IMG/VR virus record: IMGVR_UViG_3300033516_000084
Coordinates: 1 to 64,000 of that record
Length of the DNA stretch: 64,000 bases
Direction: 5' to 3' (one strand)
Source: a virus
This document shows positions 13,001-37,607 of the stretch, piece by piece (the first letter of the stretch is position 1; the number at the start of each line of letters is the position of its first letter). The translations under genes were made by a program, and so were the position numbers. The notes below the pieces were generated by a model. That model was not told the origin of the DNA. It saw nothing but the letters and a program-made list of their open reading frames with translations, and did not search any database.

Positions 13001-16000
13001 TTATGGGATATACGGGGCATCTACGTCACCACGCACCAAAAGAGAAAAACTATCTTGCGATATAGTCTCGGGACCTTGTTGAACAGTTCGTACCACCCAG
13101 AAGGGGTACTGTAGACCTATGGTATTAAAGCGCAGTACATTACCATCTACCCACCCTGCACCCCAACCAAGGACTGGAATGCTGAAGTAAGGAACTCCTG
13201 TTATCGGGTTAAGAGGGGCAAACGGAACACCTTGTGGGTGCTCTACCGTAGGGGTATTAAAAGCCCCGGTAGTACTTAGTTGACCAATGTTCTGACCAAT
13301 TGCGACAAATCCGGTGGAGCCAGAGAATTTGATAATCCACTTCTCTGTGATAGCCCCGGCGTTGGTTACTACAATGGGGTAGACCGTTGAATTGTAGTTG
13401 GCAATACAGGCACTACCTATTAAGGTGTCAGACCATACCCCGGTCCATGTGTATTGGTCAAATACTACGGATACACGGGCCCTCATATCACCGGCAACCA
13501 AGGCCGAAGATACATAAGAACTCTCTGCCGGGTAGTCGTGGCTGAGTGGGCGTGTGAACCCTAGCTGTCCCGTGATCTGCACATCAGACAGTTGTACCAT
13601 ATCCTCAATCCTGTGCTCTACCACAACCGGGTGTGCCCACGTAGCGGTGTCTTCCATAAAAATGGAACCGGCATCAAGGTTTGGGGTGTACCCGGTGGTG
13701 ATAACTGCCCCATTGGAATCCACCAAACGTACACGACTAAGACGTTCACGGCCACACAATATGGTTTGATTATTGGAGTACGACTGAGCTGTTATTCTCT
13801 TGGTATTACCAACAACAGCAAATCCTCCGGGCATAAAAATAGGCACTTTACCGTCCTGAGTCAGTCTAACTGGGTCAATACCCAGAATATCAGCGTTCAA
13901 TGGCAAGTAGAAGTAACTAACCGCGTTGTACCTGATACTATTTGGGTCGATAGGCCATGGTCTCCACACCTTACCAGCGGCGGTAATTTGGGTAGCGGCT
14001 TTAGCGTACCACCATTCGGCCTTGTCATCGTCTGTAAGCGAGCTGTTGTCTACAAGATCACCAAAAATAAGGTCTACAGTACCTGTTTGATAATCAATGG
14101 TACCTAGGCAATGGTCTCCGGTTATAAGCCCATGTATATCCGAGGTACCAATAATCTGAGTACCTGCCACGTCTATGGCGCTAAGTACCAGACCTCCGGG
14201 TTTGATAGGCGCACTGGCTGTCCTAAAGAAAGCCCTAGAGGTTGTCCAATCACCTTTACTCACCCACAGTGAATCCAAAGATAAGGCAGTTGGTGACCCA
14301 CTAACCACGTAGTCGGTTAGGTGGGCCATACCCGTTATGTAGTCAATGATACCAGACAGTACCCCCGTGGTTGTAGTGCCTGGGTCTCGGTATAGCTTGC
14401 CATCTAGGTCTTGATAGACATGGCCCATCCATGTAAACCTTACAGAGTGCGGAGCAATCCTGCTAGTGGTGTATGGTGCTAGGTCTATAGTAACTACAGG
14501 GGGTACGTAGCTCTGGGTATGGGGGGTGGATACTGCCGCGCCTGTACGATAGATTACCTGTAAAGCAGTATTATCAAACGTCTCCTTCACCCCGGTAGTG
14601 CCATACGAACCACCTTGGCTAGAAGAACTACCTCCAGATGACGAACTAACCGAGGAACTAGAAGCAGGTATTAAGTTCACACCCCAACCTGCGGACTGCC
14701 CAGGGTCTGAGCTACTAGAGGACGCAGCAGCACCAAAGTCTCCCCCAGACTCGGTATCAGAAGAATAGGAGTTAGTGGTAGTCGATGGGTCAACCACTTT
14801 GACGGTAATGGTTTTACCTTGGTAGTTAATGGTTCCCATGGAGTTCATGAAACCACCCTCACCATCTTCTGTGAGGTTGTGGGATACGGCTATTACTTGA
14901 TTACTTACTTGGCTACTAGCGGTAGTATGCTTACTGCTAGAGCCTCCAGTAGAGGAACTTGTAACCGTAGTTGAGCTCACTCTGGCTGTGCTTATAGCAT
15001 AATCTACAGTAACTGTGGTAGATGGACTGTATGTACGACCAACCCCTCCAGCATAGCCAGACCCTGCGGGAGCGGCCCCACCACCACTGGAGTATGAACC
15101 CCCAGATGTGTAGCTATATGACATTGGTTTATAATCATTCAAGATTGTACCGTTAGTAGCAGAGTTTGACGATGAGCTTTTCATGCCGCTACCAGAAGAC
15201 ATTTTCCCACCCGAGGTACTGGACACCTGTCTAATGGTTATCCACTCTACGGACACGGAGCCTTCTACAGGAACTTCATCCGTTTGGAAGGTGACAAACC
15301 CACCAGTAGAGATGGAAAGAAGCTCCTTCGTCTCATATTTTACGGTATTCCATGTATAGGTTATACTAAACTCACCACCAGCATCTGGCATGGCCGATGG
15401 GATTATGTTCAAGCGACCTAGGGTATGGGATACAAACCCGGTAGCGTGGCCAGATAGGTACCCTTTAAGGTCTGCGGTAGCGGTCTTCAGTACACCGCCA
15501 GACAGCCATGTGACCACCAACGAGCCTGGGTCAATGCCCTCATTGTCTAGCTCAAGGCTAAACTCGGGCTGTCTGAAGGTGGCCAATCCACTCATGTTGG
15601 TGTATCCACGGGTCTCACCCCAGGCGTAGATAAGGCTGGTACTACTGTCTGGGTAGGATGGTAGGGTGATGGATATAGAACCGGTCAAGTAGTTGACTGT
15701 CCCCGTACCTTGGCCGGTAAAGCTACCTAGGCCATCATCTAGCAGCGAGTACCATTCTCCCAAGGCCATGAACGATACTTCTATTGAACCGGGGGCGGGT
15801 AGCGGGTTAAGTATTTGTACGTAGCTAAAGCTACGATTCTCCTGCCCAATACGAACACGCATACTGTGGGGGGATAGCCCAACTTCGATTAGCCTAGGGG
15901 TTGTGGCCAGGGTTTGGTTACGGGTAGCCGATGGTAGTACATCTACTTCAACCTTCTCAGTGGCCGCACTAGGCACTAGGCTGGTGTACACGGTGGTCAC

Positions 16001-16747
16001 CACGGCCTTACTGTCCCCCACTTTAGCCTCTAGCTTTAAGGGTACTACACCGCAATAAGAACCGGCATCCGCTACTGAAGTGTCTCGGGTCAGTGTCTTA
16101 TCTTTGGCCACAGTAAAGAACTCATTATCGGGTGAGCCGGGGAAAGCATACCGCAGGGCATCTGATATGTCACAGGATACCACTTTTGCCTGATAGGCCT
16201 CCCCATTAGTCCTGGTGAACGTGCGCTCAATTGAATCCACACGAATAATCCGTACATACTGAGACCTCTCAGTGGTCTTACCCTCATCGAACACTAGCAC
16301 CAGAGTGCGGCCAATGGTAGGGTTAGCTACTGATGGCCGTTGAAACAGTTGGATTATTCGCTGACCTGCTACATGGTTCTCAAATAGGAATCCAGGCCAC
16401 ATGGACGAGCTAATCAAGTACGACTCCACGGTGGCAGCAGCAGCCAAACGGGTGTCGAACGTATCTCTTGAGGGGAAAATGGTTACGCTTACCCTAGGGT
16501 CTTTGGGGGGTTCGGCGATGATCACGTTCACACCCAAGAACGGTGAAGTGTCATCCGTATGCACTACTGCGTGAACCTTACGCATTGACACGTTACCACC
16601 AGCGCGGGCTAGTTCACTTATGTCATCAAAGATAGCGTTTGACTGGGCATCAAGAATCACGTTGGCGCTAGGAGGGCCACCGCCCTCTGGTACGTCTAGC
16701 ATGACACTGGACTTAACCAGCTTTATATTCTGTTCTTGGATAGGCAT
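13001..16747 (-). CDS. Large tail-tip/baseplate-hub-like protein
   Basis: 1248 aa, MPIQEQNIKLVKSSVMLDVPEGGG...NAIFDDISELARAGG.VSMRK; repeated G.(I/V)(D/N)Y.TG motifs; C-terminal WVVRTVQQG...RGDVD; second gene after the TMP. Confidence 0.75.
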   Translation of the reverse strand: MPIQEQNIKLVKSSVMLDVPEGGGPPSANVILDAQSNAIFDDISELARAGGNVSMRKVHAVVHTDDTSPFLGVNVIIAEPPKDPRVSVTIFPSRDTFDTRLAAAATVESYLISSSMWPGFLFENHVAGQRIIQLFQRPSVANPTIGRTLVLVFDEGKTTERSQYVRIIRVDSIERTFTRTNGEAYQAKVVSCDISDALRYAFPGSPDNEFFTVAKDKTLTRDTSVADAGSYCGVVPLKLEAKVGDSKAVVTTVYTSLVPSAATEKVEVDVLPSATRNQTLATTPRLIEVGLSPHSMRVRIGQENRSFSYVQILNPLPAPGSIEVSFMALGEWYSLLDDGLGSFTGQGTGTVNYLTGSISITLPSYPDSSTSLIYAWGETRGYTNMSGLATFRQPEFSLELDNEGIDPGSLVVTWLSGGVLKTATADLKGYLSGHATGFVSHTLGRLNIIPSAMPDAGGEFSITYTWNTVKYETKELLSISTGGFVTFQTDEVPVEGSVSVEWITIRQVSSTSGGKMSSGSGMKSSSSNSATNGTILNDYKPMSYSYTSGGSYSSGGGAAPAGSGYAGGVGRTYSPSTTVTVDYAISTARVSSTTVTSSSTGGSSSKHTTASSQVSNQVIAVSHNLTEDGEGGFMNSMGTINYQGKTITVKVVDPSTTTNSYSSDTESGGDFGAAASSSSSDPGQSAGWGVNLIPASSSSVSSSSGGSSSSQGGSYGTTGVKETFDNTALQVIYRTGAAVSTPHTQSYVPPVVTIDLAPYTTSRIAPHSVRFTWMGHVYQDLDGKLYRDPGTTTTGVLSGIIDYITGMAHLTDYVVSGSPTALSLDSLWVSKGDWTTSRAFFRTASAPIKPGGLVLSAIDVAGTQIIGTSDIHGLITGDHCLGTIDYQTGTVDLIFGDLVDNSSLTDDDKAEWWYAKAATQITAAGKVWRPWPIDPNSIRYNAVSYFYLPLNADILGIDPVRLTQDGKVPIFMPGGFAVVGNTKRITAQSYSNNQTILCGRERLSRVRLVDSNGAVITTGYTPNLDAGSIFMEDTATWAHPVVVEHRIEDMVQLSDVQITGQLGFTRPLSHDYPAESSYVSSALVAGDMRARVSVVFDQYTWTGVWSDTLIGSACIANYNSTVYPIVVTNAGAITEKWIIKFSGSTGFVAIGQNIGQLSTTGAFNTPTVEHPQGVPFAPLNPITGVPYFSIPVLGWGAGWVDGNVLRFNTIGLQYPFWVVRTVQQGPETISQDSFSLLVRGDVDAPYIP

Positions 16748-16749
16748 AA

Positions 16750-17160
16750 TCAGACCTCAATCAATCTCAACACAATAGTCCACCACGAATCGGGCTCATG
16801 TTCTGGAAACCCTTTTACTGGTTTTGAGTCCAGTGCCCCGTCAGAATGTCTGAACATCACCGTAAACTCACGAACATCATCCGGGTATTCTAGCACCAGC
16901 GTCATCCTCCTACCCTGTACATTTGCCCATTCGTACAACTTCTCTACCGTTGACCGTTGAACCCACCCCATCTCTGCGTCGGCAGGCTCAAGGGTTATCT
17001 TCCTGCCTTTCTGCATGACCGCAGTTTCTATCAACAACGCCCCGGTAAGGGTGTAGGAGTAGGCAGATACTACGGGTGCCCACTGCATCTCATCGTTCCA
17101 CATCAGGGTGTCCGGTAGCTGTACCACATCCAGCGGGTTAAGGGCGTTGACCAGTTTCAT
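16750..17160 (-). CDS. Distal-tail-like protein
   Basis: 136-aa gene directly after the TMP; LPD.L.W.DE..W.PV...YTLTGAL......GR.ITL pattern. Confidence 0.65.
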   Translation of the reverse strand: MKLVNALNPLDVVQLPDTLMWNDEMQWAPVVSAYSYTLTGALLIETAVMQKGRKITLEPADAEMGWVQRSTVEKLYEWANVQGRRMTLVLEYPDDVREFTVMFRHSDGALDSKPVKGFPEHEPDSWWTIVLRLIEV

Positions 17161-17213: not shown

Positions 17214-20200
17214 TTACATTGACCGGGACTTCAGTTCACCCAGTAAGGCCAGTAGGTCGCTCGACTTGTTACTAGCCACTTCCACACTCACCTGTTTGCC
17301 GTTAGAGCGTAGATCGACCTGCACAATTTGTGATGGTGCTGGCGCATTAACAAGACCACCTTTTTCAAAAGCGAACCCTTGGGTAATGGGCATGGCGGGC
17401 ATGGTCATAAAGTCAAACTGAGACCCTATTCTATCAGCGTTCTGTAGACTTAGCGGGGATGGGAAAGACGCATTATCTACCATACCTCCAGTAGCATACC
17501 CCTTGGCATGGTCTCTAAACCAGTCCATCGGTGAACCGGCTGCGGCTATCTTAGAAAAGAAGTCTGACCCAAAATTACGAACCACGTCCTGTGGCACCAC
17601 GAACTCACCGGGTGTCAGCATCGCGGGTACGGTATCCGAGGCCGCTATGTTACCTCCCTCAGCAAATCCCTTCAGCCCTTTAAGCAGATCAAACACCGAC
17701 TCACCGGTGGCCAATCCCTTAGTACTGAATATACTTGGGAGTGTATCTTTCCACTTAGAAACAATGGTAGCCGCATCCCCTACATCAGTAGCTAATCCAG
17801 GTAGAGCCCCGGTATCGGGGGCAGCGGATTCGCCACCCACATCACCACCGGTAGCAAACACAGAGTACCCATCAGTAGCCTCAGGGTAAACTACCTTACC
17901 ACCCATAGCCAAACCAACCTTGGATTCCCTAAGCTCCTTTCTGGAAAGTTCAAGTTGAGCCCGGTCTTCGATGTCCTGAGCCTTGTACGTGTCCTCTATC
18001 TCCTGTAGACCATTAGTGAGTTGTACTGCGGCCTCTGTATCTCTAGACGAAGCATCCTCTGCTATCTGTCGTTGGCCCTCTTTGTACTGGACTGCCTCGG
18101 AATCCATGTTCTCAGTGTAAGCGGTTTGTAATGAGTCCAAGGCACTGGTGTTCTGGGCAATATCCTCTTTCTTCTTAGCCTCATAGTCGTTATCAACCGT
18201 TCTCTGGGTGATACCGTACTGTACCTCCCTCTCGGTTTTCTGGGCCACGTATCCGGTAGTCAAGTCTGTCTTATTGTCACTATAGGTCTTATAGCGGGCA
18301 GAAGTTTGGTCTTTGTACGAAGTTTCTATGTCCTCTTCAGAGTCCAAGTGGGCCGTTTTACCCTGGTCATAGGTAGCTTTGTAAGCAAGGTCAGTAGCAG
18401 CCTTGTCCTTGTCTTGTTGTACTTTATCTTCCTTGGCCTTGGCTGCGTAGGTCTCTTCAATCTCTGTTGCCGCATTTTTATACTGTATACCATCCTCAGT
18501 ATTCTTTTCGGCAAGGGCAATACCAGCTTCCTTATCGGACTCGTTGTGGGCCCTAAGCTCTTGAGCCAATTTAGCACTGTAATCCAGTGCGCGGGCGGTC
18601 TCAGAGCTTTGGTAGGACTTCTCGTCACTGGCTACCTTGGCCTGATACTCTTTTTCAACAGACTCTTCTTGCTGGCTCTTAGCTATACCATCCTCGCTAA
18701 TTCTGGCCTTATTGACAGTGGTAACGTCCTCGGTAGAAGTAGTTTTAGTGGTAGTCAGGTCCTGTACACTCTGGGTGTACGCTTGGTCGGCACTCGCCTC
18801 CCCAACGGTCATAGCTTTTGAGGCCTCAGTATCCTTTATAACGAGGTCTGTCTTCAACGCTTTTATAGCCTCGGCCTTGGCCACAGGGTCTTCTATCTTA
18901 TTAGCTTTACTCATGGCGGCTGAAGCCACCTTATTAGCGTCCCCCTTAGCGGTGTCCGTAGCCGCTGAGAGTTGGGATAGCGCACGCTCCTTCTGGACAC
19001 CTGCCGCCGCCACACCACGGTCAAAACTAGTACCTATACCGCTCAGACTTACAGCATAAGCCAGATCACCTTTCCTACCAGACTCTTTGAAGGCATCGTT
19101 GCTATCGGATACAGTCTTCTCCTTGGCAATTTTACCTGCGCTCACTGTCTCAGCATAGGAGGTTGCGGCATCAGAAGATGCCTTTGAGTTTGCTATCTGC
19201 TCTTCATTAAGGTTGGCAGCAAAAGACCGGTCATTATTACTAAGCCCGGTGTCGTAGCTCAACTTACTTAGTCTAGTTGTTTCGGAGTAACTCTTATCGT
19301 TGTTTTTGGTGTCCTTGGCATGGGCTATCCCATCTAGCCTAGCGGTATTGGCATAGGATTCTGTGCTGTCAGACAGGATTTTGTCGTAGTCCTTTGTGCC
19401 AGCGGCTACCGTGCGGGCATACGCCGTATCATTGTCCCGCAAAGTATTCTTATGCGAGGTGCTAGCAGCATCCGACTCCCTTGTATAGGAGGTCGTCATC
19501 CCGGTAGCAGACGTGTTATAGGCTAGCTGGGCTAGTCGTTGGGTCTCAGAGTCTGCATCACGATAGTCCTTTTCTGTTTTATCATGGGCAGTAGAACCAG
19601 CCTTTTTGGTGTCTGTGAAGTTCTTATCTTGGGCAGTCCTAGATTTATACAGCTCTTTATCATAGGCATCCACCGTGGCCTTGTGCGTGCGGTCTAGGTC
19701 TGCCGTTGATTTAGCCGTAGCCACATCAGCCACCCTATTGGCCTCGGTGTCTGCTTTTATCAGCGCATCCTTTGCCGCCTTCTTAGCTATCCAGGACTTG
19801 CGTTGCACCTCGTTAAAGGCATCAACAAGGTCCTTGTCCGTAACAGCTCCACCCTCAGCGTAGTACCCGACAGGCCCACCTTCAGCATGGTACTCTACCT
19901 CACCACCCTCGGCATAGGCCGGTTTCGCCCTAGCAGACGCTTTGGCACCAGTAGCTTTTTGGTAGGCAGAAGCCAAGTCCGCTTTGTTTTTCTCAAAGTT
20001 ATACAGGTCCTCATCAGATGGATTGCTACCCAACTTACTAAAGTCATCCTCCAAGTCCTTGTTAGCAAGGTCAAACCTATTCTGGGCAACCAGGTCTTCT
20101 AACTCTAATACCTCTGCCTTACTTCCATCAAACCCGGCAGATAGGGTGTCGGTGCGCTCTTGTTTCTCAGCAGCTAACTTTTCCTCATTTGTGGTTATAC

Positions 20201-23200
20201 CATTAAAGGCCTCTAGTTCCCCTCGTTTTGTATCAGCAGCTTGCTTATCTTTACCAGATTGAATAGTAGAACGCTCAGACTGTACATGCTCTTCACGTTG
20301 GTGACGTAGCGCGTCCTCTACCTTCTTAGCATCAGCACCTACTGAACCCCCCTCTGCATGATAGTCCACCTCACCGCCCTCGGCAAAGGCAGGGCGGGCC
20401 AAAGACCTGTTTATGATATTGTCCTTCCCTGTGCTCTTGAGCCACGTAAGGCGCTCAGCCTCTCTAGTGCTCTTACTCTTGTCATAGGAGTCATCTACAG
20501 ATTGTAGGTCTCCCTGTGGACTCCTAGAGCGGGCTTTTGTGTAGGCAGTATAGGCCGCACTATCTTGACCAGACCACGAAGACTGGTTCGTTATTAGACC
20601 GGCACCAAAAGACGAGCTATCACTTGAACCCCCCTCTTCAAAGAACAGTGAGTCTACTTGGCCTCCGGTGGCAAACGCCTGCACCTCCCCCCCGGTAGCG
20701 AAGCCGTTGTACTTGGCAGTAATCTCTTTCTTGCCAAGCTCGAACTGGTACTGGGCCTCGATGGACCTGGCCTTGTCGTCTTCTTTTAAGGAGGTTATGG
20801 CGTTATTGGTTTGAATAACCAACTCAGTTGCTCTAGCCTGGTCATTAATATCCAGGGTTTCGTTATCGAATCTGAACTTGGAGGAATCAGACTGCCTCTT
20901 GGTATCGAATGAATCGGATAGGTCGGTATGTGCCCTAGCCACTAAGCGGGCATCCTCTACCTTCTTAGCCTCATTCTCAGAGTCCACTCTCTTACGTTGT
21001 AGATCAATCTGGTAAGAGTCTTCGATTGTTTTAGCAGCTAACTGGGTGGTAGCATCTTGAATAGAGTACCCTTTGGTTACCCCTAGTTGAGCTACGGTAT
21101 CCGAGTATGCTACATCAGCCCTTTCTACTTGGGCAGTTGTACCGGAGGAAATGGATTCCTTTGTCTGGGTCAAGGTGTCCATGAGCGTGGATATTGCCGA
21201 AGACCTGCTAGTAGGGTCGTCCATCTGCATGGCCTGCTTGTACTCAGTAGAGGCCGTGGTCTCTGCATCACGTACTGCCCTAGCGGACTCCAAGGCTATC
21301 TGGTCCTTACTACGTACTGTCTGTACCCCGGTATCGGTCACCTGACGTGTGTACCCGGTCTCAATACTTTGATAGGCCGTGGTCAAAGCCACGTCATTGA
21401 GTCTTGAGGACTCCTGTCTAGCTATCTCAAGGTTTGTTTTGACAGTCTCTACCGCCCTAGCACCTGAATCCACTAGGTCTTTGTAGTCCTTATCAATTTT
21501 GTTAGAGGCTGCTGACTGCTGTATCTGGTCTTCTGACTTAATGAAGTCAAAAGATCGTACTGCCGCCTTCTTAGTAGAGTCAAGGGTTACAGCGGCTACC
21601 CTGCTAGACTCTGAGCTATCTTTTTGAATTTTTGTTTCCGCTTTAGCGAGTTCAATTCTAGCTTTACGTTCATCCTCATTATGAGCCGTTTTTAGGGCAG
21701 ATAGGTCTGAGTTATAGGAACCCACAGCACCCCCGGTAGCAAACTTAGCCGGGGCTTTACCATCCTTAGGATGCTCTCTTGCCCAGCGGTCATCGTACCC
21801 CGTTCCACCCATAGAGCCGGGTGTTACTTTACCTCCAAAAGCATACCCACGTATTGGCCCGAGTATGGGCGGGGTAGCCCTCCTATTTCTAGACTCATTA
21901 AGGTAGTCAAAATCCACAGCCCTACCAAATCCTGGGTCTCCGGTAAATCCAGACCCCCTTGCATTACGGCTAACCTCTCCTACGTCCTCACCAACCCCAG
22001 CCCTACCAAATCCTGGGTCTCCGGTAAATCCAATGCCTCTTGTATAGTTATTACTATGTCCTGGGTCACCAATACCCACAAATCCAGGGCTCCCTGTTAG
22101 TACTGGACTTTTTTCATAGTGTTTCCTAAGTCCATCATCGCGCTTAGCCTCATTATCAACAACGGTACGGTTATATTTTGCACTGTGATTCTGATAGGCT
22201 TTCTGGTTTGCATACTCGCTTTCAAAATATGCCCTACCATTGGTATCCGCTGGCCACCAAGAGTTGGAGCCTGCGTAGCCACCGGTAGCAAATTTAGCAG
22301 GGTCACCTAGCCTAGCTTGATAACCACCCGTGGAGGAAGGTTGAGTCCAGCCAATCCTAGCCTTGTACCCAGTACCGGAGTCGGTGGTAGCCCCTAGCTG
22401 TCCAGGACCCTTGGCCCCTAACATACCAGGGCCAGTGGCTCCTAGGCGTGCAATTGATTGCACGGACACCCCGGCGGCACGGTTCTTTTCTTCCTCTTCC
22501 CGTATTTTCTGGTAAAGTTCACCCGCCTTTTGATCGTCACCTTTGGCTTTAGCATCATCATAGGCTGAATTTAGGTCGTCTAACTGGCTTACTACACCCC
22601 CTATAGCGAACTTACGTACAGGTGTTATACCTTTACCCGCATTGGCCTTATCCAGGGCCTTTTCATCGGCTATAATCTCGTCCCAAGTCTGGGGCGCTTT
22701 TTGTCCTGAGGCAACCATTATCTCCGCATTAGTCATCGGGGTCAGCAAAGATTGCTGATACGTTAAATCGGCAAAGTTGGCGGTTTTGGCTTGTACTTTT
22801 TTCGGGTCTTTATGGTTCCCCTTAGAATCTAGAGGGTTTTGTGCCTCTATCATAGCCTCATCAAACGTGCCCAAGGCTTCTGGCGGCGGTGGTAAGTAGA
22901 ATGTAGGTATCCCTGGAATTACCTTATACTCCTGCTTAGGCTCTTCTTTACCACTCCTACTAGAGGCTCTAGCACTCTTTGCGGTGGTGTAGGCTGTGGT
23001 AATAGCCGTTAGGGGTGCTTCATAGGTGGATGCGTAGTTACGCCTTATAGTCTCCTCTTCTGAGGGGGCAGTGGCTAGGGCAGCAGCTAGGTTGCTCTCT
23101 AATCTAGCCTTCCTAGCAGACAGCGCAGTTGAATAAATACGCTCAGCGGCAGCGTCCTCGGCAGCCCATGCCTTCGGGTCTTTGCTGGGGGAAGGAAAGA

Positions 23201-26200
23201 ACTCTGGTACTTTGTCCGGGGCGGGGGAATATGGAGTTAACGCATTTTTAGCGTTATTACCAACTGCCTCACCTTTGTCAGTAAGAGGCTTCCATCCGTT
23301 AGGTCCACCCACTGAGGCCATGCCTCCATCAGCAAACCCTTGGAAACCCTCTAGGGCTTTTAAGAGCATAGACTGGTCTGGCATTGACCCAGAGCTAAAC
23401 AGCTCAGGGAATGCTGTTTTGTACTTACCTAGAAGCCCTTCAATAATACTAGACTCCTCGGGGCTCAGAGTGCCAGCCTTGGCCTTAGCCTCTAAGGCTT
23501 TTAGCAGGTCACGATCTTTTAACACGTCACCTGTATTTGACGCTAGGCTGGGCTTCACATCTGGATTTTCGGGCGTACTCAGCTTTGGTAAGGCTATACC
23601 ACCAGTGGCAAACTGACTAGCCCTACTCGGGTCTTTTACATCAGACAATGGTACAGGTTTACCGTTCTCATCAACGGCTGTACCATAGGACTTTAGGGGT
23701 GGCATTACCTTGCCACCTGTAGCGTAATTTTTGACGCTGCTCTCTATACCCTCTTCTATGTCTGCTATCCTGAACTTTTGAGGACTGGCCGAGGAATGCC
23801 CTACAACAGTGGGGAGGTAGCCTTTCCACTTGTTGAGTATAGCCTCAGCTCTCAAAAAGTCACTTGCCTTTGGCTTTCTAGACGGTTGGAAAACCTGTTC
23901 CTTTAGAAAATTGAGTTCCTCACCATAGCTGGTGCCTCCATCGGCCCCACCGTACCATGACGCTTCACTCCTACTAACAAATCCCAGACTAGTACTCCCT
24001 GCCGGACCCTCAGACTGCCGTATGTGTTGGGCCACCATCGGCTGTACTGCTTCTATGTAGGCCTCTGCCCTTTTGAACACCGACATATCTACTGGCTTTT
24101 CTACCTCGGTATTCGCTGGTGCATCAGTACTACCCCCAGTGGCATAGTGCCCTACTTCTTCTGGGTCGGCAGCTCTTTGTGCATTCACCCTAGACTTCAT
24201 GGCCTCAAAGTCTTCCTTTAGCTCGGCTAGACGTTTATTTATAGCTATGGTGGGGTCTGGCCTAAAAGCAGCGCCAATATCCGAAAAATACACAGTCCTA
24301 GTAGCGGCCTTTGTTATCTCCTCCACCTCGTTATTATAAGTGTCCTGAAGTCTCTTATCAAAAGCGGCACGTGCTTGGTATATCTCATCTTTCTGGCCGG
24401 GGGTTAGGTCAACCTCTCCACCGGTAGCAAACTTACGTACCCTTCCACCGGCCAAAGCCGATGGTGCCATGCTACTGTTATTGATATTGTTAAAGAAGTT
24501 TGTACCGTATTTGGCTACCATGCGTGGGCTGATAACTATCTCACCCGGTGTGAGCATGGCAGATACCGGCCTAGCAGAGCCTCCACGGGCGTAATAGGCC
24601 ACTTCCTGGGGTTGTACTTGTCCACCTACAGCGTACCCAATAAATTGGTTTAGCAAGTTACTGCCGTACTTACCTACAGCAGAGTTTCTAAGTACAAATG
24701 AACCACTTTCTAACGTGCGTGGAACGGTGTCACCAAACCCGGAGCCGGGAACAACCCCGGTGGTCATACGTGGGAAGTTTACTGAACCTCCTCTAGCAAA
24801 CTCGGATGGGGCGCTACCAGACATACCTACCACATCTACACCAGACAACCCTGAGGATGAACTGGGGCCAGAGTACGTATTGGAGCCACTAGAACTACTA
24901 GAACTACTAGAACTAGACCCGCTACCAATGGCAGTAAGGCTACCACCAGTGTACTCAACCATGCCAGCCTCACCACCGGTCTTGTTGTCTTCTACCTTCA
25001 CTATGTGAATGGTGTGCGTCGAACTGGTGTTCATCCCACTCAGGGCATTGATATTTCCTGCGGCTTCACTAGCGTTGTCATTAACTTGGTGTTGGCTACT
25101 GGTGCTCAACCCACCCAAAGCAGACTGTACGGTGCTGACAACTTCACTAGAGTTCTCGGTAATGGTAAGGGTTGCTGACTCGTCTTCTACCGCTGTTAGC
25201 TTGGCAGGTGCAGCCTCTACCTGCGCCATATCAGCAACGCCGGTAAGGGTAACTGTCTTGTCTGGTACAGCATCCACTGATGCTTTAGCAGCCCAGGCCG
25301 GGGGTGACACGTTGTCCACAGCATCCAAGGATACGGAGGTGCCAGTCAATCCACTTACAGACCCCTGTGCAGTAGACACTACGGGGGACACATTATCCGT
25401 TCCATCCAGAGATACGGTGGTTCCGGTCAAACTAGATACCGCTCCCTGTGCTGTAGTAACGGTGGGTGATAGGTTATCCGTACCGTTTATGTCTGTATTG
25501 GTTTCTGTAGGTATGGCTTTTGCTGCATCTGCTGCTGCTATTGCCCCCTCCACTAGATCACCAGAGGCATTCATTTCCGTGGTTACTTCAGGTGGTATGT
25601 CGCGTAAGGCCGTGGTAGCCTCTTCTGCCTTATCAGGCACATCTGAGGTTGCGGCTATATCTACAGTTGCAAGGTCTGGAACCGCTTCCACGGCGGCGGT
25701 AGCAGCAGCAGCCACAGGCTCTACCGTTGAGGTAGCAGATATATCTACGGTCTCGGAATCCGGGATACTGCCCAAAGAGGTCACTACTGCTGGCACTACC
25801 TGCCCATCATTAGAAGACACGGTTACCGTAGCTGTGGTATCTGATTTTACCGTCCCAAGGGCGGCATTTACCGAGTCCACAGCAGGCCCTACAGCGGCTG
25901 TGTCAGGGATGATCGCTGGTGCTGCATCTTGAGCCGCACCCATTGCTGCATCAGATTCGGCAACTGCTGGCACTACAGCCGTAATATCCGGTGTGATAGC
26001 AGGGGATGCACCTTGCGCTGCTGTAACAGCCGCATTGGAGGCATCTACTGCCGGTTGTACAGCAGTGGTGTCTGGAACAATGTCAGGTGTTGCACCTTGG
26101 GCAGCACCAACAGCCGCATTGGAGGCATCTACTGCCGGTTGTACAGCAGTGGTATCTGGAATAATGTCAGGTGTCGCCCCTTGCGCTGCTGTAACTGCTG

Positions 26201-29200
26201 CATTGGAGGCATCTACGGCGGGTTGTACCCCGGTGGTATCTGGAATAATGTCAGGTGTTGCACCTTGGGCTGCTGTAACTGCTGCGTCAGAAGCGGCTAT
26301 AGCCGGTTGTACAGCCGTAGTATCAGGGATTATGTCAGGGGATGCACCCTGTGCAGCAGCTAATGCTGTATCTGAGGCGGCTACAGCCGGGGATACTGCA
26401 TCAGTATTTGGTGTGATGGCTGGTGTAGCCCCATGTGCAGCCGCAATGGTGGTGTCAGATGCGGTTACAGCCGGGGCAACACTATCAATGTTCGGTGTAA
26501 TGGCGGGCTCAGCTCCTTTTGCCGCACCCAAGGCGGTATCAGAGGACGTAACTGCTGGGCTTACCGCATCAATGTTCGGTGTAATAGCAGGGTCTGCGCC
26601 CTTGGCAGCACCCAAGGCGGTATCAGATGCGGCTACGGAGGGCTGAACTGCACTTGTATCGGGTGTAATAGCAGGGTCTGCGCCTTTTGCCGCATCCAAG
26701 GCAGTATCAGAAGCACTGACTGCTGCTGCCACACCAGAGGTGTCTGGTTCAATGGCAGGCTCTGCCCCCTTGGCCGCACCCATTGCGGTATCAGACGCTG
26801 CTACAGCCGGTCCAACAGCAGAATCATCAGGATTGATTTTGGGGGTTACATCAGGTACGCCAGTTACTGCTTCGGTAGAAGTCTGAGCTACTTCTGGGGC
26901 GTTGGTAGCAGTTTCAATTTTTACCGGGGTTATCGGGGGCATTGCCGCTAGGGCAGCATTCGACAGGTCTACTTTACCTGGAACATCAGATGCACCACTA
27001 ATTTTTGCCTCAGTCTCTACGGGGACGCTTGCTATAGCTAAGTTAGCCCCTGACGCAGCTTCCTCGGCTGATTTGGGGTTACCCATGAAGTCAGTATTTA
27101 TTTTCGTAGGAACACTAGCAGCCGCTACATTTGCCGCTTGTGCAACTGGTCCCATATTAGACGTTGCCGCTATATCAACCGGTACGGTGGGTTCTACAGT
27201 GGCTATATCCTTGTTTACACCGGCTATTGCCGGGGATACATCGTTGTCATCAACAGCCACTTTCGGTGTTGCGTCAGGTATTCCTTTAAGGGCGGTGTCA
27301 ATGGCCTTAGCCTGTTCTGGTGCGTCAGTAGTTACCGGGGCAGGAATCGGCATCTCAGCCGCCACATCCTTTTTCAGCTTCTTGGCGGTAGCTAGGGTAG
27401 CGTCTGCTACCTGTTTGGCGTTACCTTCTAGCGGGAACTGTGGTGACGGTTCAGAGGCTTTGGGTGCAATTGATTGCACAGGGGGCGTAACCGGATTGTA
27501 TTGACTAGGATTATTCTGGTCTTGGGGTACTGATTTTGAGGCTTTTAGATTATCCAAAACCGTTGGCTTATACCCATTGGCCTTAGCCTGTGCAGCCAAC
27601 GTCTGATTGTTCTTAGCCTCAGACGCATCTACCCTCATTTTTTCATCGTACCAGGTACCAAGGGCATCGGCAGGTGGGCGATTAACAGCATCAGCCATGC
27701 GCTCTGCCGGGCCTTTTGGCCCAACCTCTACGGGACCTCTACGGGGTCTACCAGCCTCATCATCACGCTGGTCTTGCGTAACTATAGGGGGTAGTGGCGC
27801 TGCTTCAGGTTTGGGCTTAGACAAGTCCATGGGCTTAGACAAGTCCACAGGCTTAGCATCTGCACTAGGACGTTGATTGGAGTACGTTACTTTTCCGTCG
27901 CTATCCACCACCTTAAAAATGGTCTTGGATGGGTCTTCAGCAGCCTTACTAGGTGTTTTATTTCCAGTCTGGTTATTTCTGTTGCTAGGGGATGAATCAC
28001 TTGCAGGTGGTACATACTTACCACTGTCCTGATGCATGGAAGGCATCCCTGTCCTAGACCCAGACTCACCAGGGGCAAGGCCAGTGGCATCAGGTGTGGG
28101 CTTGGGCTTAGGCTTGTTAACTGGGGTCTTGGCAAGGTCAGGGTTGGCCTTATCAGCAGCGGCGATCTTGGCAGCATTAGCGGCCTCTACCTCAGCGGGG
28201 GTTGGTCCATTAAGCTGTTTGAGGGCTTTAATAGAGGCAGCAATGGTATCCGCATCTTTTACATCCTGAGCGGCCTCTCTAGCCTTCCGGGACACCTCTT
28301 CGGGGGTAGGGGCAACGGGCTTTTTAGGCTCGGAAGGTTTTTTTAGCGGGAAATAGTCGTTTACATCTGAACTGGTCTCTGGCGCGTTAGGAGAATCTGG
28401 CTTTTTAGGCAGATTTGGCATAGGGAAGGTATCATCTATGCCACCTTTTGCCTCCCCAAGTTTTCTCCACCAATCTAGGGCAGATTGAACTTTGGAGATA
28501 AACCCATCTATGGGCATAGTATTAACAGACGGAGCTACAGTTTGCCCATTTATAGTGTTAATGGCAGAAGATGCCCCTTCTAGGCCCTTCTTAATCCCGG
28601 CAATGGCGGGTTCACCTTCTACTTTAACAATAGTGGTCTTCCCATTCACCGTATCTTGTTGTACGACCACTCCTTTAAGAGCCTTCTCAACAAGGTTGAC
28701 CTCTACCTCACCCTCTATGGTGGCCTTTATAGCTAAATCTTTTTTAGCCTGTGCCTCAAGGGCAACTAACTTGGCTTGAAGCGTATTTGTACGTTCTGTC
28801 GCTTGCTCGGTAGTGAGGCCAACTGGGACAGGCTTCTTTATCTCTTCCTGTATCAGCTTGATAGCCGCTAGGTCTGTATTTACCTTGTCGGTAATAACCA
28901 CCATGGCAGGGGTGTTTAGCATTGCCTTATCTAGGGCATCCTTAGCGTCCTTTACACTATTGACGTTTTTGAGAGCATCATTTACGTCCACCTTCACTAC
29001 CGTAAGAAGGCCTACAGCCCCCTGCATGGTGGTGCTCTGGGTAGTTATCTTATTGAGTTCATTAGTAGCTGTATCAATGCCTATCTTCAGTGAAAGCTCG
29101 GTAGCCAGAGCCATACCCAGCTCTTTTTGCTTTGTCTTTACCGTCTCTATAGCGGCTGAGGCGTTGGCACCGGATAGCTCCAGTTCCTTTTTAGCCTTTA

Positions 29201-32200
29201 CCGCATCGTCAAACTCTTTCTGCTTAACCATCACATCGGCCATTGCCAGCTTCAGGGCGCTGGTATCAACATTGATGGTTTTCTGTAGGTCAAGAGCTTT
29301 ATCCAGCGACTCTTTTGCAGTTTTTGCTGCATCTATGGTGGCAATAGCCTCTTTAGAGCCGACTACTAACTTCTTCTCCTTCTCTAACAAGGCCTTGAGG
29401 TTGGCATCAGCCGCTTTGACTGCCTCTATAGCGGTTTGAGTTGCAGCAGTTTCTGCTTTAATGGTTACCGTGCCGCCTTTTTCCAGGTCTAGCACTTTGG
29501 CCTTCAGACCAGTGACACTAGCTTCTACGTCCTTGGCGTTATCCTTGATGGTAAGCTCAATGGCTTTCATCTTAGCCGTTTCTTCAATGGCAAGGGTAAC
29601 AGCCCTAACATCCTTGAGTGCTTGCGCGGCACTCACACGCATCTCCATTGGTAGGGACAAGTCAGTACGTATATTGTCTAGCGCAGCTTCAACCGCAGTC
29701 ACAACAGGGTGTAACTTGAAGGGTCCACCTTTCTCCACATCAGCCCGCATTACATTCAGGGCCTCAGTAGCCTCATCAACTTTCAGCTTGACTGACTTGA
29801 CGTACTCTTGCTTCCCCAGCAAAGCCTGTAGGTCTTTGGCTTTCTGCATCGCATCCGCAGAGTTCAGGGAGATATTGCCTTTAATACCGGACTCTAAGGA
29901 AGTTCTAAGTTCTTTTAGTTTATCAACCACCCCGGCAGACATGCTCCTCATCTGAGATAAGTTACCAATAACAGTATTTAGACCGGAATTGATACTGGAG
30001 TTGGAATTAGCATAAGCTGTAGCCAATGCGGCGGCACCTTCTGCTACGGCATCTCCTCCACGTCTAGCGCCATCCGTTGCAGCGACTATCACTTTACCGT
30101 TTTCAGAATACCCTGCGGTCAAGGTCTGGGCTAGAGAGGTTACATCACCGTACAACTTCTCAGCTACCTTAGTATCCCCTTTAGCCGCAGCAGCCACCAA
30201 CTCTGACTGCTTCTTAGCCAAATCAGACACATTAGCGTAATACTTTTCAGCATCCTTCATCGCCCCTTTTTCCATACTACGGATAAGGTCTGCTGACGAC
30301 ATTTTTAATTGTTTTACCGCCTCATCATTGCTCTTGATTTGGTTTAGTAACTCGGCCTCTTTAGCCATTAAGGCGTTTATGTACTGGTCGTAGCTGGCTT
30401 TACGGGACTCCAAGGCCGTTATCTTGTCCTGCGTGGTCTTGGAGTTGAAGTCGTTAAGCAGGTTTTTCTTCTTGAGTGCCAAGTCAGCAATCTGCTGGTC
30501 GTGGGTGGCCTGAGAGGTAAGTTTCTTACCCAGGGCCTCGCCTACCTTAATCTCCTCTTGGGTTAGAGCAGCAAGTTTTACGTCTAACGCTGACTTAGCA
30601 GCAGCAGCGGCTTTTGCGTCAAATCCGGCCTGTGCGTCTGCGCCTTTAGTCAGTGCCGCAATTTTATCGTTCTCACAGTTTATGAAGGATTCCAACTTCC
30701 TCTTATCAGCCTCTGTCGCACTCGTAGCAGACGCTGTTATTTTTGCGTCCTGTTGTTTGTAGTATGCCTCTATCTCGGATAGGGCAGTTTTTGTAAAGTC
30801 CCCTGCCAGTTTACTAAGCTGCTCAAAACCTTTGCTCATAGCACCATAGGAGGCCTCGGCCTGTGCTGCGGTCTTGCCGACTGTCTCATTGATCAGCTTT
30901 AGCTGGGTGTCCAAGGCCTTGGCTACTGGCTCAAGAGCTTCTATGGCCTTACCTACGGCAATATATTCTGGGGACATTTGCCGTAGTTTTATAATCATCT
31001 GGTCGGTAGCCACCACGATTGCATCAGAGGATATTTTCCCTTCTGACCCTAATCGTACTACCGAACCTATGAGAATATCCCACTCGTTCTTAGTGCTTAC
31101 GGCCTTTAGCTGGGCCGCAAATACTTCGTCAAACTTCTGTGCCAGTTGAACGGAGGCTATCGCTGCTTGTTGTATAGCCTCACCACCTGCCTTTAGTTCA
31201 CCAATGTTGAGTAGGTTGTTACCCTTCTCCCGGACAGCATCTACGGCCTTACCCAGCCCTTCGAGCATGGACACATTTTTTGTCTGGTCCAGGGCTTTCT
31301 CAAAGTACAGAGAGAAAGTGTTGCCGGTGGCCAGCACACTACCTGCAATTGTTTCCAGGCTAGCAACGATGGCGGCTGACTTGGCTTCAACCCCTGTTTT
31401 AAGCTCGGACATGTTAGAGCCCATGCCCTTCATAGCCTCATCAAACTTGGTTTGTAGGATGGCACCTACAGCAGACACTGCTTTAGAAAACTCAAATACC
31501 TCTTTGGTAGTAAGTTTAGTTGTTGCGGCTATAACTTTTTGGGAGTTATCCAACTGCAACATCTTAACGGACGCAAGTGAGGCAGATATTGCACCATCCG
31601 ATACGGCACGTTGTAACTGGTTTGTTTGGTCGGTCAAATCTTTTATATTGGTACCAGTACCAATCGTATCTACAGACTTTTTAACTTCTGCCGCTTTCAC
31701 CTTCAGTGCTTCCATTGCACTAACGATGTTCTGGAATTGTTTTGGAAGCACTACCCCGGCAGACATGGCGGTAGTTATCAGCTTTTCTAGGTCTTCCTTA
31801 GATAGCTTAGTCTGGGTGATAAGTTTTACGGTCTGATCGGTTACCAAGGTGTTGGCTTTAGCCAGGTCCTGGAACGTCAGGGAGTTGCGAACCGTTGCCT
31901 CCTGTAGCAGGGCCATCTCCTTGGTAAGCATGACGATATTGCCAGCCTTACCAAAATCGCCCAAGACAATGGTAGCCTGTTGAACCGCTCCCATGAACTT
32001 CATGGTAGCAGAGTTACCCTCTGCCATATTTTGGATTATCTTCTCACCACGATCTATGATATTGTTACCGGCTAACTTCCATTTATCACCAACCTCCTGA
32101 ATAGAGGCCCCAATATCACCAAGTCCGGGTACTAGCCCGATAAAGTACCCAAAAACCTTAATAACGTCACCCATAACGTCAATAACTGCCCCAAAAACCG

Positions 32201-34752: not shown

Positions 34753-35384
34753 TTAATCTCGCAAAGTTTGGATTATTTCCTGGAGCTTTTTTCCGTCTGC
34801 GTTGGTGCCTACGAAATTAGCCCAAGTTAAGTCACTTAGTTCATTGGCCCAACCCCTGCCTATGGCCTTTAGAAAGGCCTTAAACTGGGGGTAGGTATAC
34901 AACAGAATGTCGTTATACCTGTGGCCGTTTCTTATCAGGGTTTGGAAAGAGTTGGACCAGCTTGCGGGGTCTTGAACAGCTTTCCGCTTACTCCCGCTAC
35001 CAGCCCTGATAACAAGGGGAGCACTCTCTGGGTAAAAAAATCGAGGTTTACCTCTACTATCGCCCCAAACAGTTGTACCAGTTCATCCACACCAAGGTCG
35101 TCCACCCAGTCGCGGGGTTTGTTTACCAGCAAGGCCACGAGTTCTAGCACGGTGTCACTGTTCTCCATGACCAACGAGTAAATATCGAACCCATAGGTGT
35201 TTTCCTCTTCTGACTTGGCGCTCTTTGCCTTGTCTTTTGCAGACTTTAGCTGCTCATAGAAGGGGTGGGTAATACGCATGGCCTTAGAAAGTTGGCCCAC
35301 ACGAATTTGCTTGATTTCAAAGGTTTCACCGCGAAGGGTAACCATGATCGGCTCAGGCATAACCGCCAACATATCATCACTCAT
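34753..35384 (-). CDS. Tail assembly chaperone, long (G-T-like) form produced by -1 ribosomal frameshift
   Basis: Slippery T TTT TTT (plus-strand A7 at 35034-35040, in NLDFF). The -1 frame stays open (YPESAP...WSNSFQTLIRNGHRYNDILLYTYPQFKAFL...TLRD) to TAA at 34753-34755, 1 nt before the TMP start. Confidence 0.8.
34935..35384 (-). CDS. Tail assembly chaperone, short (G-like) form
   Basis: ORF 34935..35426; likely start MSDDML at 35384 after GGAG. W.DDL..DELVQL...IVEVNLDFF motif; lies between the tail tube gene and the TMP. Confidence 0.8.
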   Translation of the reverse strand: MSDDMLAVMPEPIMVTLRGETFEIKQIRVGQLSKAMRITHPFYEQLKSAKDKAKSAKSEEENTYGFDIYSLVMENSDTVLELVALLVNKPRDWVDDLGVDELVQLFGAIVEVNLDFFTQRVLPLLSGLVAGVSGKLFKTPQAGPTLSKP

Positions 35385-35528
35385 CTCGTTCTCCACACAG
35401 GTTAAAGGGTTTGTGTCTTTCAACACGCCCCTATCTTAGCACCCGTGGCACATACCTTTGAAATACTATGTGCAATTGATTGCACTAGGCCATAAAAAAA
35501 GGCCACTGGCTTTGGGTACGACACGGTT

Positions 35529-36000
35529 CTAAGCCGGGTGAGCTTGCCCCTTATCTCTGTACCGTTCTTTTTGGGCAGCACTCATTTTTGCACGGGTCTC
35601 GTCGCTCATATTTTTCTTTGCCACACTCATTTTTGCACGGGTTTCTTCTGAAAACCTTTTCCCTTTGTTTGCTTCACTCAATTTTTTACGAGTCTCTTCT
35701 GAGGGGGGAGATACCTTTTGAACCGTCACCACCTACAGTAAGATTACAAAGTTTGGCTCCACTGATGGCACGATACTGCGCAATCAATTGCACTTCTATG
35801 GCACAAGCAGCTTCCCAAGACAGGTTTTCATGCAGAATGGTGACTGTATAGGCGTACTTTTCTGTTGTGTTGTGCCAGTGCTGAGTGCGTTTAACCTCAG
35901 AGTAGGGCCTTCTGGGGTTGCCTATGCCCACGTAAAACACTATTCCATCTGAACGGGTGTGAGTGTACACGCAGGTATCACCTTTAGTTGATACTGACAT
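35529..36000 (-). pseudogene. GIY-YIG-like/NUMOD3 homing endonuclease, frameshifted
   Basis: 35686-36000 (CVYTHTRSDGIVFYVGIG...LCNLTVGGDG) and 35529-35732 (SEETRKKLSEANKGK NUMOD3-type repeats) together match intact 49440-50132; one extra base in the C6 run near 35703-35708. Confidence 0.8.
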
Positions 36001-36144
36001 TTTTTAGTCCTAGTACCCAAGAGCTACGCGGCCTTCCAAGCCGGAATTGCTAACCGGTGGGATTTCTCCCAACCCCGTAACCCTTTAATTCTTTAGCAAC
36101 GAACAAGACCTTGGAAAGCCTTACCACCCCGGTGTTGGTAGTTA

Positions 36145-36155
36145 CATTATAGCAT
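36145..36155 (-). promoter_or_regulatory. Extended -10 promoter (TGcTATAAT) upstream of the GIY-YIG-like gene
   Basis: Minus strand reads atgcTATAATg just downstream of a terminator U-tract. Confidence 0.5.
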
Positions 36156-36169
36156 AGTAGTGCTAAAAA

Positions 36170-36200
36170 TAAAAAAGGCCGGAATGACCGACCTTTTTTG
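36170..36200 (-). terminator. Intrinsic terminator after the HNH gene
   Basis: aaggtcggtcattccggcctttttt (stem-loop plus U6). Confidence 0.75.
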
Positions 36201-36238
36201 ACCCAGACTTTTGATCTGGGCATAAAGTAAAGCTGAGT

Positions 36239-36790
36239 TTAATTGAGCCACTTCCATGTACGGAGGTGCTTAATTGATTGTATCGCAGTAGGGGTGCTCT
36301 TGTATATAGCAGCTAGGGTATGGTGGCTTACTCCGGCCTTCAACTGTACCCTTATTTCCCTCACCTGGGTTTCTGTAAGGGCGGCGTTGGGGTGCTTTGA
36401 ACCCTGTAGGATAGTGCCATTCTTTATCATATCCTCATGGTTTTGCTTGCTGGTTCCCCAATACAGGTTGTCCAGTGTGTCGTTAGCCCGGTTGTCGTCC
36501 CTGTGCAGGGCCAGCCTGCCGTTGGCGGGGCCTACAAAGGCTTCCAGAAGTAATCTTGCTACAGTACTAGACTTTGTTTTGCCATCCTTGCATAGAACAA
36601 CACCCCTACGACCACTCTTTTGCAGTCCAATGGATAACAAGGTTCCTTTCAACTCTTTCAGAACATCACCAGTACCCTTCTTTGTGGGGTGATTTCTATG
36701 TAGAACTACACGGGTGACAGACTTTACCCTGCCTAGGTCTGATACCTCATACAACCCCTCGTACCCAACAACAGGTTTCCACTTCTCCAT
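36239..36790 (-). mobile_element. NUMOD4 + HNH homing endonuclease gene
   Basis: Start MEKWKPVVGYEGLYEVSDLGRVKS (NUMOD4) at 36790; LHRDDNRANDTLDNLYWGT..QNH HNH motif; C-terminal HTH-like segment. Confidence 0.88.
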
Positions 36791-36802
36791 TCTGTGCTCC
36801 AT

Positions 36803-36828
36803 AAAAAAGGCCGGAATGACCGGCCTTA
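36803..36828 (-). terminator. Intrinsic terminator after the tail tube gene
   Basis: aaggccggtcattccggcctttttt (stem-loop plus U6). Confidence 0.8.
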
Positions 36829-36854
36829 ATTTTAACACAGATTTTTGGTCTATA

Positions 36855-37607
36855 TTAATTGAGCTTCTGAACTTGGAAGAACTTCGAGCCCGTAGCACGC
36901 AGGCTGTCCGACAACACCGAGCCTTCGAGCGTGAACTGCTGAATAGCGTCGGAGATAAGAGCCAGCTCTTTCAACGGGTCAGTCAGGAACTTGAACACTT
37001 CAACCACAACCGGCACATTGCCTTCGGCGGTGTTCAGACCTTCAAAGCGCATGTACAGCTCACTGGTAGGTGCAGTAAGGGCATCAACCTTCACCTGGGT
37101 AGCGAAGGTGTAGTCAACGGTAACGACACCGCCATCAAGCAGACCTGTAATGGCAGGTGCAAACTTGAGTGAACCGGCTTCCAGGTTCACTTCGTAGTCC
37201 GTACCGTCAACCAGGGTAGCAGCGCCGTTCTTGACCACAACTGCCGACACCTTGAGGTTCTTCAACGAAGAAATCTTACCCAGATACACCGTAACAGCCT
37301 CACCGGTAACAGAGCCACCGGCGATAGTGACTGTCTCACCGCGCAGTGCATCAGCCAAATTAGCGGCCAAAAAGTTTTCCACGGTCATCGACAGGCTGGA
37401 CTTGGTTTCAGTAGTCAAACGCAGGTCGATAGCGCGTTGACCAGAACGGCTTTCCTTGTGTTCGATGTTGGACACCGCGACACTGATTTTCAGATCAGAG
37501 ACGTTACCAACGGGGATAAAGCCCATAGGCAGGCCTGTGGTGGGGGCGCGTTTTGCCAGAAGCACTACGCCCTGACCCGAGAAATAGCTATTGGTGGTAT
37601 CCCACAT
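36855..37607 (-). CDS. Major tail (tube) protein
   Basis: 250 aa, YFSGQG.V...GNVS.L......EHKESRSGQR..D...LRFEGLNTA...LALI.D....F.LEG.VL.D; strong RBS, own terminator, highly biased codon usage. Confidence 0.88.
   Translation of the reverse strand: MWDTTNSYFSGQGVVLLAKRAPTTGLPMGFIPVGNVSDLKISVAVSNIEHKESRSGQRAIDLRLTTETKSSLSMTVENFLAANLADALRGETVTIAGGSVTGEAVTVYLGKISSLKNLKVSAVVVKNGAATLVDGTDYEVNLEAGSLKFAPAITGLLDGGVVTVDYTFATQVKVDALTAPTSELYMRFEGLNTAEGNVPVVVEVFKFLTDPLKELALISDAIQQFTLEGSVLSDSLRATGSKFFQVQKLN

Follow-up and report, generated by a model that had tools for sequence, protein, structure and literature searches.

Tape measure protein (TMP) cleavage is established for phages lambda and T5. The lambda TMP, gpH, matures to gpH* and gpHC through a cut in a Gly- and AxGG-rich stretch beside a conserved C-terminal unit (PMC12617516), and in T5 a cut after R1127 divides the TMP, pb2, into pb2* and pb2C (Linares et al. 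2023, PMC10038345), the latter a released piece reported to have a metallopeptidase motif and muralytic activity (PMC10038345). In several phages, TMP copies that are six-fold at the N-terminal end and three-fold at the C-terminal end have led to the suspicion that cleavage is general (PMC12617516, PMC11972413). Here we describe a giant siphovirus TMP of 5,845 aa, encoded in a window of 64,000 nucleotides (positions 1 to 64,000) of the IMG/VR virus record IMGVR_UViG_3300033516_000084 (100,966 bp, ~66% complete), in whose distal part a short motif of the form (F/Y/H)AxGG, related to sequences at the lambda unit and at the T5 cut, is repeated many times. Nucleotide positions below are those of the window, and residue numbers without further label are those of this TMP.

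17214..34751, minus strand: TMP gene, a single open frame of 5,845 codons plus stop

A short motif repeated in the distal part of the protein

A preliminary description of this DNA had counted about 25 such motifs in the C-terminal ~2,500 aa of the TMP, and the count holds. Residues 3318 to 5752 contain 22 copies of the strict form, [FYH]AxGG, and residues 1-3300 none; a loose form that also admits LAMGG, FEEGG and FEKGG occurs 25 times (residues 3318-5799, window 17355-24800). Every variant listed at the outset is present: FARGG, YAVGG, YARGG, FATGG (seven copies), YATGG (three), FADGG, FAIGG, YAFGG, FAEGG, HAEGG and YAEGG (two each), and the three loose forms. Shuffling the C-terminal 2,545 aa 5,000 times gives a mean of 0.16 copies and a maximum of 4. 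Val stands at position +6 in 18 of the 25 copies, and the extended consensus reads Phi-A-(T/E)-G-G-x-V. We did not find the motif strings in the open searchable literature.

Selection acts on the motif itself, a short linear peptide. The codons of its 25 copies differ freely at synonymous positions and Tandem Repeats Finder (TRF) detects no tandem DNA repeat within 17214-24810; selection therefore acts on the peptide and not on the DNA. The Gly-Gly pair is invariant across internal duplicates that are only 25-38% identical, and the motif is absent from all other six-frame open reading frames (ORFs) of at least 80 aa in the record (53,831 aa scanned). Three other sources were rejected: a DNA-level repeat or recombination site by the unconserved motif codons and the TRF result, an assembly artefact by the low identity of the duplicates, and a general site of the phage head protease by the absence of the motif from any other ORF.

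Several copies stand close together, in three clusters:

20628..20702, minus strand: FATGG/FATGG/FEEGG at 4684/4693/4704 (residues 4684-4708), spacings 9 and 11, with differing synonymous codons
20346..20387, minus strand: FAEGG and HAEGG (residues 4789-4802) at 9-residue spacing, the preceding segment being paralogous to residues 4905-4957
19848..19916, minus strand: YAEGG, HAEGG and YAEGG at 4946/4955/4964 (residues 4946-4968), 9-residue spacing

An element K(W/Y)K..(L/F)P, described earlier as duplicated, is found in three copies (3641, 3776 and 5666), each 30-35 aa before a motif.

The lambda-type unit and the expanded slot

The motif flanks a conserved TMP unit that runs motif, DTVPxxLxxGEFV-type core, motif, and it does so mostly as the closing motif. 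A profile of this unit, built from the third copy in the giant TMP and its homologues in Ralstonia prophage-type TMPs, matches the giant TMP three times, at residues 3317-3396, 3396-3448 and 5690-5762. The DTVP element had been reported to occur three times; three units do stand as defined by the profile, but the second copy reads RPVSAMLTPGEIV rather than DTVP. The units and the segments next to them are as follows:

24801..25250, minus strand: pre-unit segment (residues 3168-3317) with NTSSTHTI and a Ser/Gly run, recognized by alignment to Ralstonia-type TMPs
24408..24803, minus strand: units 1 and 2 (residues 3317-3448), in tandem, each core between motifs; profile E 3e-17 and 6e-15
17466..17684, minus strand: unit 3 (residues 5690-5762), with FAEGG, a SDTVPAMLTPGEFV core and YATGG; profile E 1e-28
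17217..17465, minus strand: C-terminal docking piece (residues 5763-5845), a predicted beta-hairpin and terminal helix; pLDDT 81-85

The motifs of units 1 and 2 lie at 3318, 3373, 3387 and 3441. These two units are preceded by the Ser/Gly run and not by a hydrophobic stretch, the sole one of which in the TMP is at residues 793-874. Unit 3 sits 83 aa from the C terminus, like its lambda counterpart, and units 1 and 2 lie 2,400 aa further upstream. The pre-unit segment is 33-36% identical to residues 919-1040 of Ralstonia-type TMPs, which end in the same order of parts: the NTSSTHTI segment, FAxGG, DTVPRTLxxGxFV and FAxGG, then a helical linker of ~120-150 aa, xxDGG, SDTVPAMLTPGEYVV, YATGG, and a terminal hairpin and helix.

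Two phage proteins carry the unit once. Lambda gpH (NC_001416) has FATGG at 733, 14 aa, AGIVHRGEFVF and YATGG at 778, with residues 752-779 matching the unit profile (E 1e-7), and JBD30 gp46 (locus L162 of our set) has FASGG at 1019, SDSIPILASNDEFM and HATGG at 1081 within a match at residues 1015-1088 (E 4e-10). The motif is thus a peptide that flanks a lambda-type TMP unit of wide occurrence. In a census of 122 sequences that includes lambda gpH and the giant TMP, two units are found in 92, three in 17 and a single one in 13; the three units found here are within the normal range. Copies of the motif outside the units align best to the closing motif, (K/R)(G)-Phi-A-x-G-G-x-V.

The region between units 2 and 3 departs from that range. 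It forms a slot whose largest parts are two helical modules:

17685..24407, minus strand: inter-unit slot of 2,241 aa (residues 3449-5689) with 16 strict (19 loose) isolated motifs
20700..21743, minus strand: charged helical module (residues 4337-4684), closed by the FATGG/FATGG/FEEGG cluster
17922..19844, minus strand: largest helical module, ~650 aa (residues 4970-5610), with 11/22/33-residue aromatic periodicity

In 124 homologous linkers the corresponding length is 110-1,246 aa (median 130), as against 2,241 aa here. Those linkers hold 10 isolated motifs in 36,642 aa, or 0.027 per 100 aa, compared with 0.71 in the slot, a density 26 times higher. The motif total in related TMPs has a median of 3 and never exceeds 6, compared with 22 here. 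That the motif has been amplified, as the preliminary description held, is borne out by these figures. Self-comparison further reveals five paralogous module pairs, 25-38% identical, among them 4340-4720/5157-5656 (colinear), 4744-4800/4905-4957, 4087-4162/4286-4345 and 3773-3810/5663-5700. Four of the five end at a motif, in agreement with the earlier view that the motif delimits modules. Duplication of helical modules, each closed by one to three motifs, enlarged the slot; these duplications are old, and their copies have since diverged.

The charged module 4337-4684 is a colinear paralogue of 5157-5656 (25-32% identity) and is predicted, at low confidence, to be helical. In module 4970-5610, aromatic pairs at lags of 11, 22 and 33 residues number 15, 14 and 16 against 1.8-1.9 expected, and internal repeats are offset by multiples of 22 aa; the 11-residue aromatic periodicity is a pattern associated with TMP ruler repeats. 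Searches for other identities within the slot came back empty. Four inter-motif segments scanned singly at E<=1 match no Pfam or PHROG family, residues 3446-5610 have no homologue among proteins shorter than 3,214 aa (5.8 bn proteins), a full HMMER scan of residues 3441-4640 against 1.84 bn representatives returned 0 matches, and the ESM Atlas gave no usable match for inter-motif segments.

Structure prediction gives a similar picture. A single-sequence AlphaFold2 model of residues 3441-4640 (mean pLDDT 43) has helices of 15-50 residues between coil, a 260-residue Gly-rich stretch modelled wholly as coil, and seven of its nine motifs in coil or at helix ends. A model of the last 245 aa, made from an alignment of 35 sequences, is confident only in the unit core helices (pLDDT 77-87) and the terminal hairpin and helix (81-85); its four motifs are all coil, with pLDDT below 50 and no intrachain partner. 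This placement fits a linear motif read by another chain or protein. The preliminary description had also proposed that the TMP is a carrier of many peptides delivered at infection. This idea is not supported: the Pfam, PHROG, sequence and Atlas searches matched no inter-motif segment, AlphaFold2 gave nothing beyond low-confidence helices and coil, and the largest modules are diverged, ruler-like duplicates. Judging from these searches and models, the inter-motif pieces look mostly like helices of a spacer or ruler kind together with Gly-rich coil, rather than like effectors or enzymes. Solved virions have only the C-terminal ends of their TMPs ordered (residues 818-849 of lambda gpH, PMC10721106, PMC12617516; the last 33-42 residues in JBD30 and Douge, PMC11445458, PMC13033339).

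Proposed cleavage joints and competing explanations

How the motif is distributed among other tail proteins bears on what it might do. TMPs were read at 36 of 38 IMG/VR loci of the hub family to which the tail-tip hub protein of this record belongs and at two other loci, the hub relatives at these 38 loci being 31-57% identical to that protein. The motif is absent from 37 of the 38 TMPs, and the remaining one has a single copy. The hub-family TMPs (loci L004-L041) are 815-1,355 aa long where complete. In the six C-termini compared, from four hub-family loci and the two other loci and all belonging to motif-free TMPs, the last ~35 aa (strand, strand, helix) resemble by eye those of the giant TMP. 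A requirement of the motif for tail-tip docking is ruled out by the relatives that lack it. One Ralstonia phage fragment pairs a unit-bearing TMP with the same hub family. Taken together, these sequences make unit and motif an optional accessory upstream of the docking piece.

The motif also occurs beyond TMPs. When IMG/VR was scanned for AEGG pairs at a distance of nine residues, more than 118 loci were returned, and at ~30 of the 86 sites read the form is (R/K/F/Y)AEGGxVxxYAEGG; one AEGG doublet lies near the C terminus of a phrog_1293 TMP. In three proteins (L045:2111-4522, L061:4340-6529 and L066:946-3429) a phrog_4287 'DNA ejection protein' domain ends at 272-331, and an (R/K/F)AEGGxV..YAEGG doublet begins no more than 6 residues from that end. 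In the 397-aa protein L062:6156-7346, KAEGGMI at 235 and FAEGGMV at 328 bracket the linker between DUF6321 (160-232) and phrog_17747 (341-396), and in the TMP P0075 motifs at 1238 and 1459 enclose an SLT domain (1369-1438). The motif is therefore a joint at the ends of domains in proteins that exit by way of the tail.

We consider it close to an even chance, if slightly below, that the motifs are maturation cleavage joints. This is our leading reading because the T5 cut lies directly before AEGG: the sequence there is FVPR/AEGGMM (the slash marks the cut), pb2 has two A.GG in its 1,219 residues, and the chance of the cut falling exactly before an A.GG is ~0.002. One member of the motif class is thus a proven cut site, and the T5 cut is the one real precedent for a cleavage role of the motif. 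The giant TMP has, in kind, 25 sites of the T5 type x/A-E-G-G-x-(V/I/M), with AEGG in seven. In lambda, A.GG is found at 707, 711, 718 and 734, and a cut at 710-733 agrees with the size of gpH*, 78-79 kDa. On this model the full-length TMP would first be enclosed by the polymerized tube, and its distal 43% would then be cut at the motifs, as in T5 before AEGG and as in lambda at the AxGG run just upstream of the unit. Cutting would yield ~20 pieces of 9 to 650 aa, which would remain in the tube lumen and exit first when the tip opens, and it may ease the exit of a ruler that is possibly ~0.9 micrometre long.

Several observations weigh against cleavage. No Phi-AxGG site, in this TMP or elsewhere, is known to be cut, and for lambda gpH neither the position of the cut nor the enzyme is known (PMC12617516). 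In T5 the residue ahead of AEGG is Arg instead of an aromatic one, and the link to T5 rests on 4-7 residues, because the unit profile does not detect pb2. We know of no protease for the T5 TMP, and no peptidase domain is found in the giant TMP or in 13 scanned tail genes of a record that is ~66% complete. Copies 9 residues apart would give useless nonapeptides and look more like a structural repeat or avidity site. Since the 38 TMPs described above almost entirely lack it, the motif is dispensable for tail-tip docking and for basic TMP function. The AlphaFold2 models are of low confidence, with mean pLDDT of 43-56.

Nearly as good an account is that the motifs are structural joints that are never cut, a possibility we rate as real but clearly short of probable. 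Each would be a short strand or hinge, made of a hydrophobic anchor, a Gly-Gly turn and Val, that staples trimer or hexamer chains in register, breaks and restarts coiled coils, or docks on the lumen or a chaperone; in that case the C-terminal 2,500 aa would amount to additional ruler. The clusters at 9-residue spacing resemble a structural repeat, the same doublet recurs in other phage proteins, and the monomer AlphaFold2 models leave the motifs partnerless, as expected for an intermolecular contact. The inter-motif modules are ruler-like helices, one with the 11-residue aromatic periodicity, and other TMPs likewise hold the bulk of the ruler, up to 1,246 aa, between two units. However, the N-terminal 3,300 aa, of which ~1,600 aa are canonical helical body, lack the motif and the long inter-unit rulers of other TMPs almost lack it, so that a ruler does not need the motif. 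The coincidence of the T5 cut with the motif also counts against this account.

The proposal of an ejected polyprotein, in which the segments between motifs would be separate bioactive peptides or effectors set free in the host, appears improbable. It draws on the differing composition of the segments, on the fencing of domains by the motif elsewhere (SLT in P0075, DUF6321 in L062) and on T5 pb2C as a released muralytic fragment (PMC10038345). Nevertheless, the searches and models gave no segment a domain, a homologue, an Atlas look-alike or a confident fold, the largest two modules are paralogous, repetitive charged helix, and residues 3300-5845 have no hydrophobic or transmembrane (TM)-like stretches. 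Least likely of all, in our judgement, is that the isolated motifs are functionless passive passengers copied along with duplicated spacers. The slot clearly grew by duplication of blocks of helix plus motif, yet Phi, A, G-G and V have been kept in 25 copies with scrambled synonymous codons while the duplicates drifted to their present identity, and no other ORF of the record contains the motif. Taken as a whole, the interpretation in the preliminary description is partly supported.

Cleavage at the joints could be one instance of something broader, namely that Phi/Arg-A-x-G-G-x-(V/I/M) is a general processing code of tail-travelling proteins and that the ruler here matures into ~20 fragments expelled before the DNA. 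We regard this extension as speculative and on balance doubtful. If true, no example to date would be as heavily segmented as this TMP, and the code would offer a direct handle on the cut site and protease of lambda gpH. A conserved peptide that lies at the mapped T5 site, flanks the lambda/JBD30 unit and is multiplied about eight-fold here is in any case a concrete, mutable candidate for a processing signal.

Gene context and comparison with known systems

The assignment of the ORF as a TMP agrees with its surroundings. A tail assembly chaperone gene lies upstream and distal-tail/hub genes lie downstream, which is the tape measure position of siphoviruses:

36855..37607, minus strand: major tail protein with an Ig-like domain (phrog_807, E 6e-71)
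36239-36898: HNH/NUMOD4 homing-endonuclease-like gene
35686-36000: small GIY-YIG-like homing-endonuclease gene
34935..35426, minus strand: tail assembly chaperone (phrog_1442, E 4e-24)
13001..17160, minus strand: tail-tip genes downstream of the TMP gene, phrog_4408 (136 aa) and hub-like phrog_6128 (1,248 aa)

Further tail genes follow downstream of the last two. A 109-aa open frame at 34753-35082 overlaps the end of the chaperone gene, stops just ahead of the TMP start and is a possible frameshift extension of the chaperone. The major tail protein is ~40% identical to those of Stenotrophomonas DLP_5 and Vibrio SIO-2-type siphoviruses. The two homing-endonuclease-like genes, which occupy window 35686-36898, lie between the major tail protein and the chaperone.

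Homology places the TMP among proteins much shorter than itself. Pfam and PHROG scans of its two halves gave no match. Its last 245 aa retrieve 212 longer proteins with phmmer, mostly PF20155 or PF10145 TMPs of 1,300-2,000 aa, and PF20155-bearing TMPs of 1,300-1,370 aa can be aligned to both its N-terminal and its C-terminal part; by BLAST, residues 995-1817, 3168-3379 and 5248-5845 are colinear with a 1,366-aa Ralstonia prophage TMP. A profile of the TMP-homologue alignment matches the TMP chains 9occ_M, 8rk3_A and 8zdo_S. With single sequences, the PDB sequence search gave matches at chance level only, and Foldseek of the C-terminal model against the PDB gave nothing. A search for giant homologues of 3,214-10,229 aa recovered the query alone, two queries each against IMG/VR and JGI metagenome contigs found no close relative, megablast against cultured phages found nothing, and tblastn found two Ralstonia phage fragments only. 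No close relative for a comparison of module arrays emerged from these searches.

Other features of the protein lie upstream of the motif region. Residues 1-500 (window 34751-33252) are 32% Ala and 25% Ser plus Thr and nearly free of aromatics, and residues 2151-2520 (window 28301-27192) are rich in Pro and charge; neither is like the canonical TMP body at 501-2150. A tandem array of 84-nt (28-aa) repeats at window 26000-26804 (residues ~2650-2920) is 70-83% matching; its units are PDTTAVQPAVDASNAAVTAAQGATPDII-like in translation, and it is far younger than the slot's duplications. The single cysteine of the 5,845-aa protein is residue 1359.

The systems that can be set beside this TMP differ in how much they share with it. 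The longest known tail, nearly 1 micrometre, is that of Thermus phage P74-26 (PMC10034513). Its giant TMP is alike as an extreme ruler; the present TMP, if fully extended, implies a tail of ~0.9 micrometre. Lactococcal Tal (Tuc2009/TP901-1) is reportedly a tail lysin of the tail tip and lumen that cleaves itself at a Gly-rich site; it is said to differ in not being a TMP and in having a single site of GGSSGGG type.

The closest detectable homologues of both ends of the giant TMP are the Ralstonia prophage-type TMPs (PF20155, ~1,366 aa, for example P0007) together with JBD30 gp46. The parts in common are the pre-unit segment, units A and B, and the hairpin and helix at the end, whereas the Ralstonia-type proteins have an inter-unit linker of ~120 aa, three to four motifs in total and one quarter of the length. 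The cut at R1066 assumed in the published JBD30 model was rejected as evidence, as it is a generic Arg-C prediction (PMC11445458) and the residue lies inside the unit core. Lambda gpH has the same unit upstream of a C-terminal tip-docking helix, but with a single unit, two motifs in 853 aa and an unmapped cut; here there are three units, ~19 further isolated motifs and a 2,241-aa inter-unit slot. T5 pb2 provides the sole mapped TMP cut, directly before AEGGMM, which fits [RKFYH]-A-x-G-G-x-[VIM]. It differs in the Arg that precedes the cut, in having a single site and in the lack of detectable homology to the unit core. What is known, then, is a lambda/T5-type C-terminal TMP module and its maturation; what is notable in this protein is the copy number of the motif and modules that are spacer-like rather than enzyme-like.

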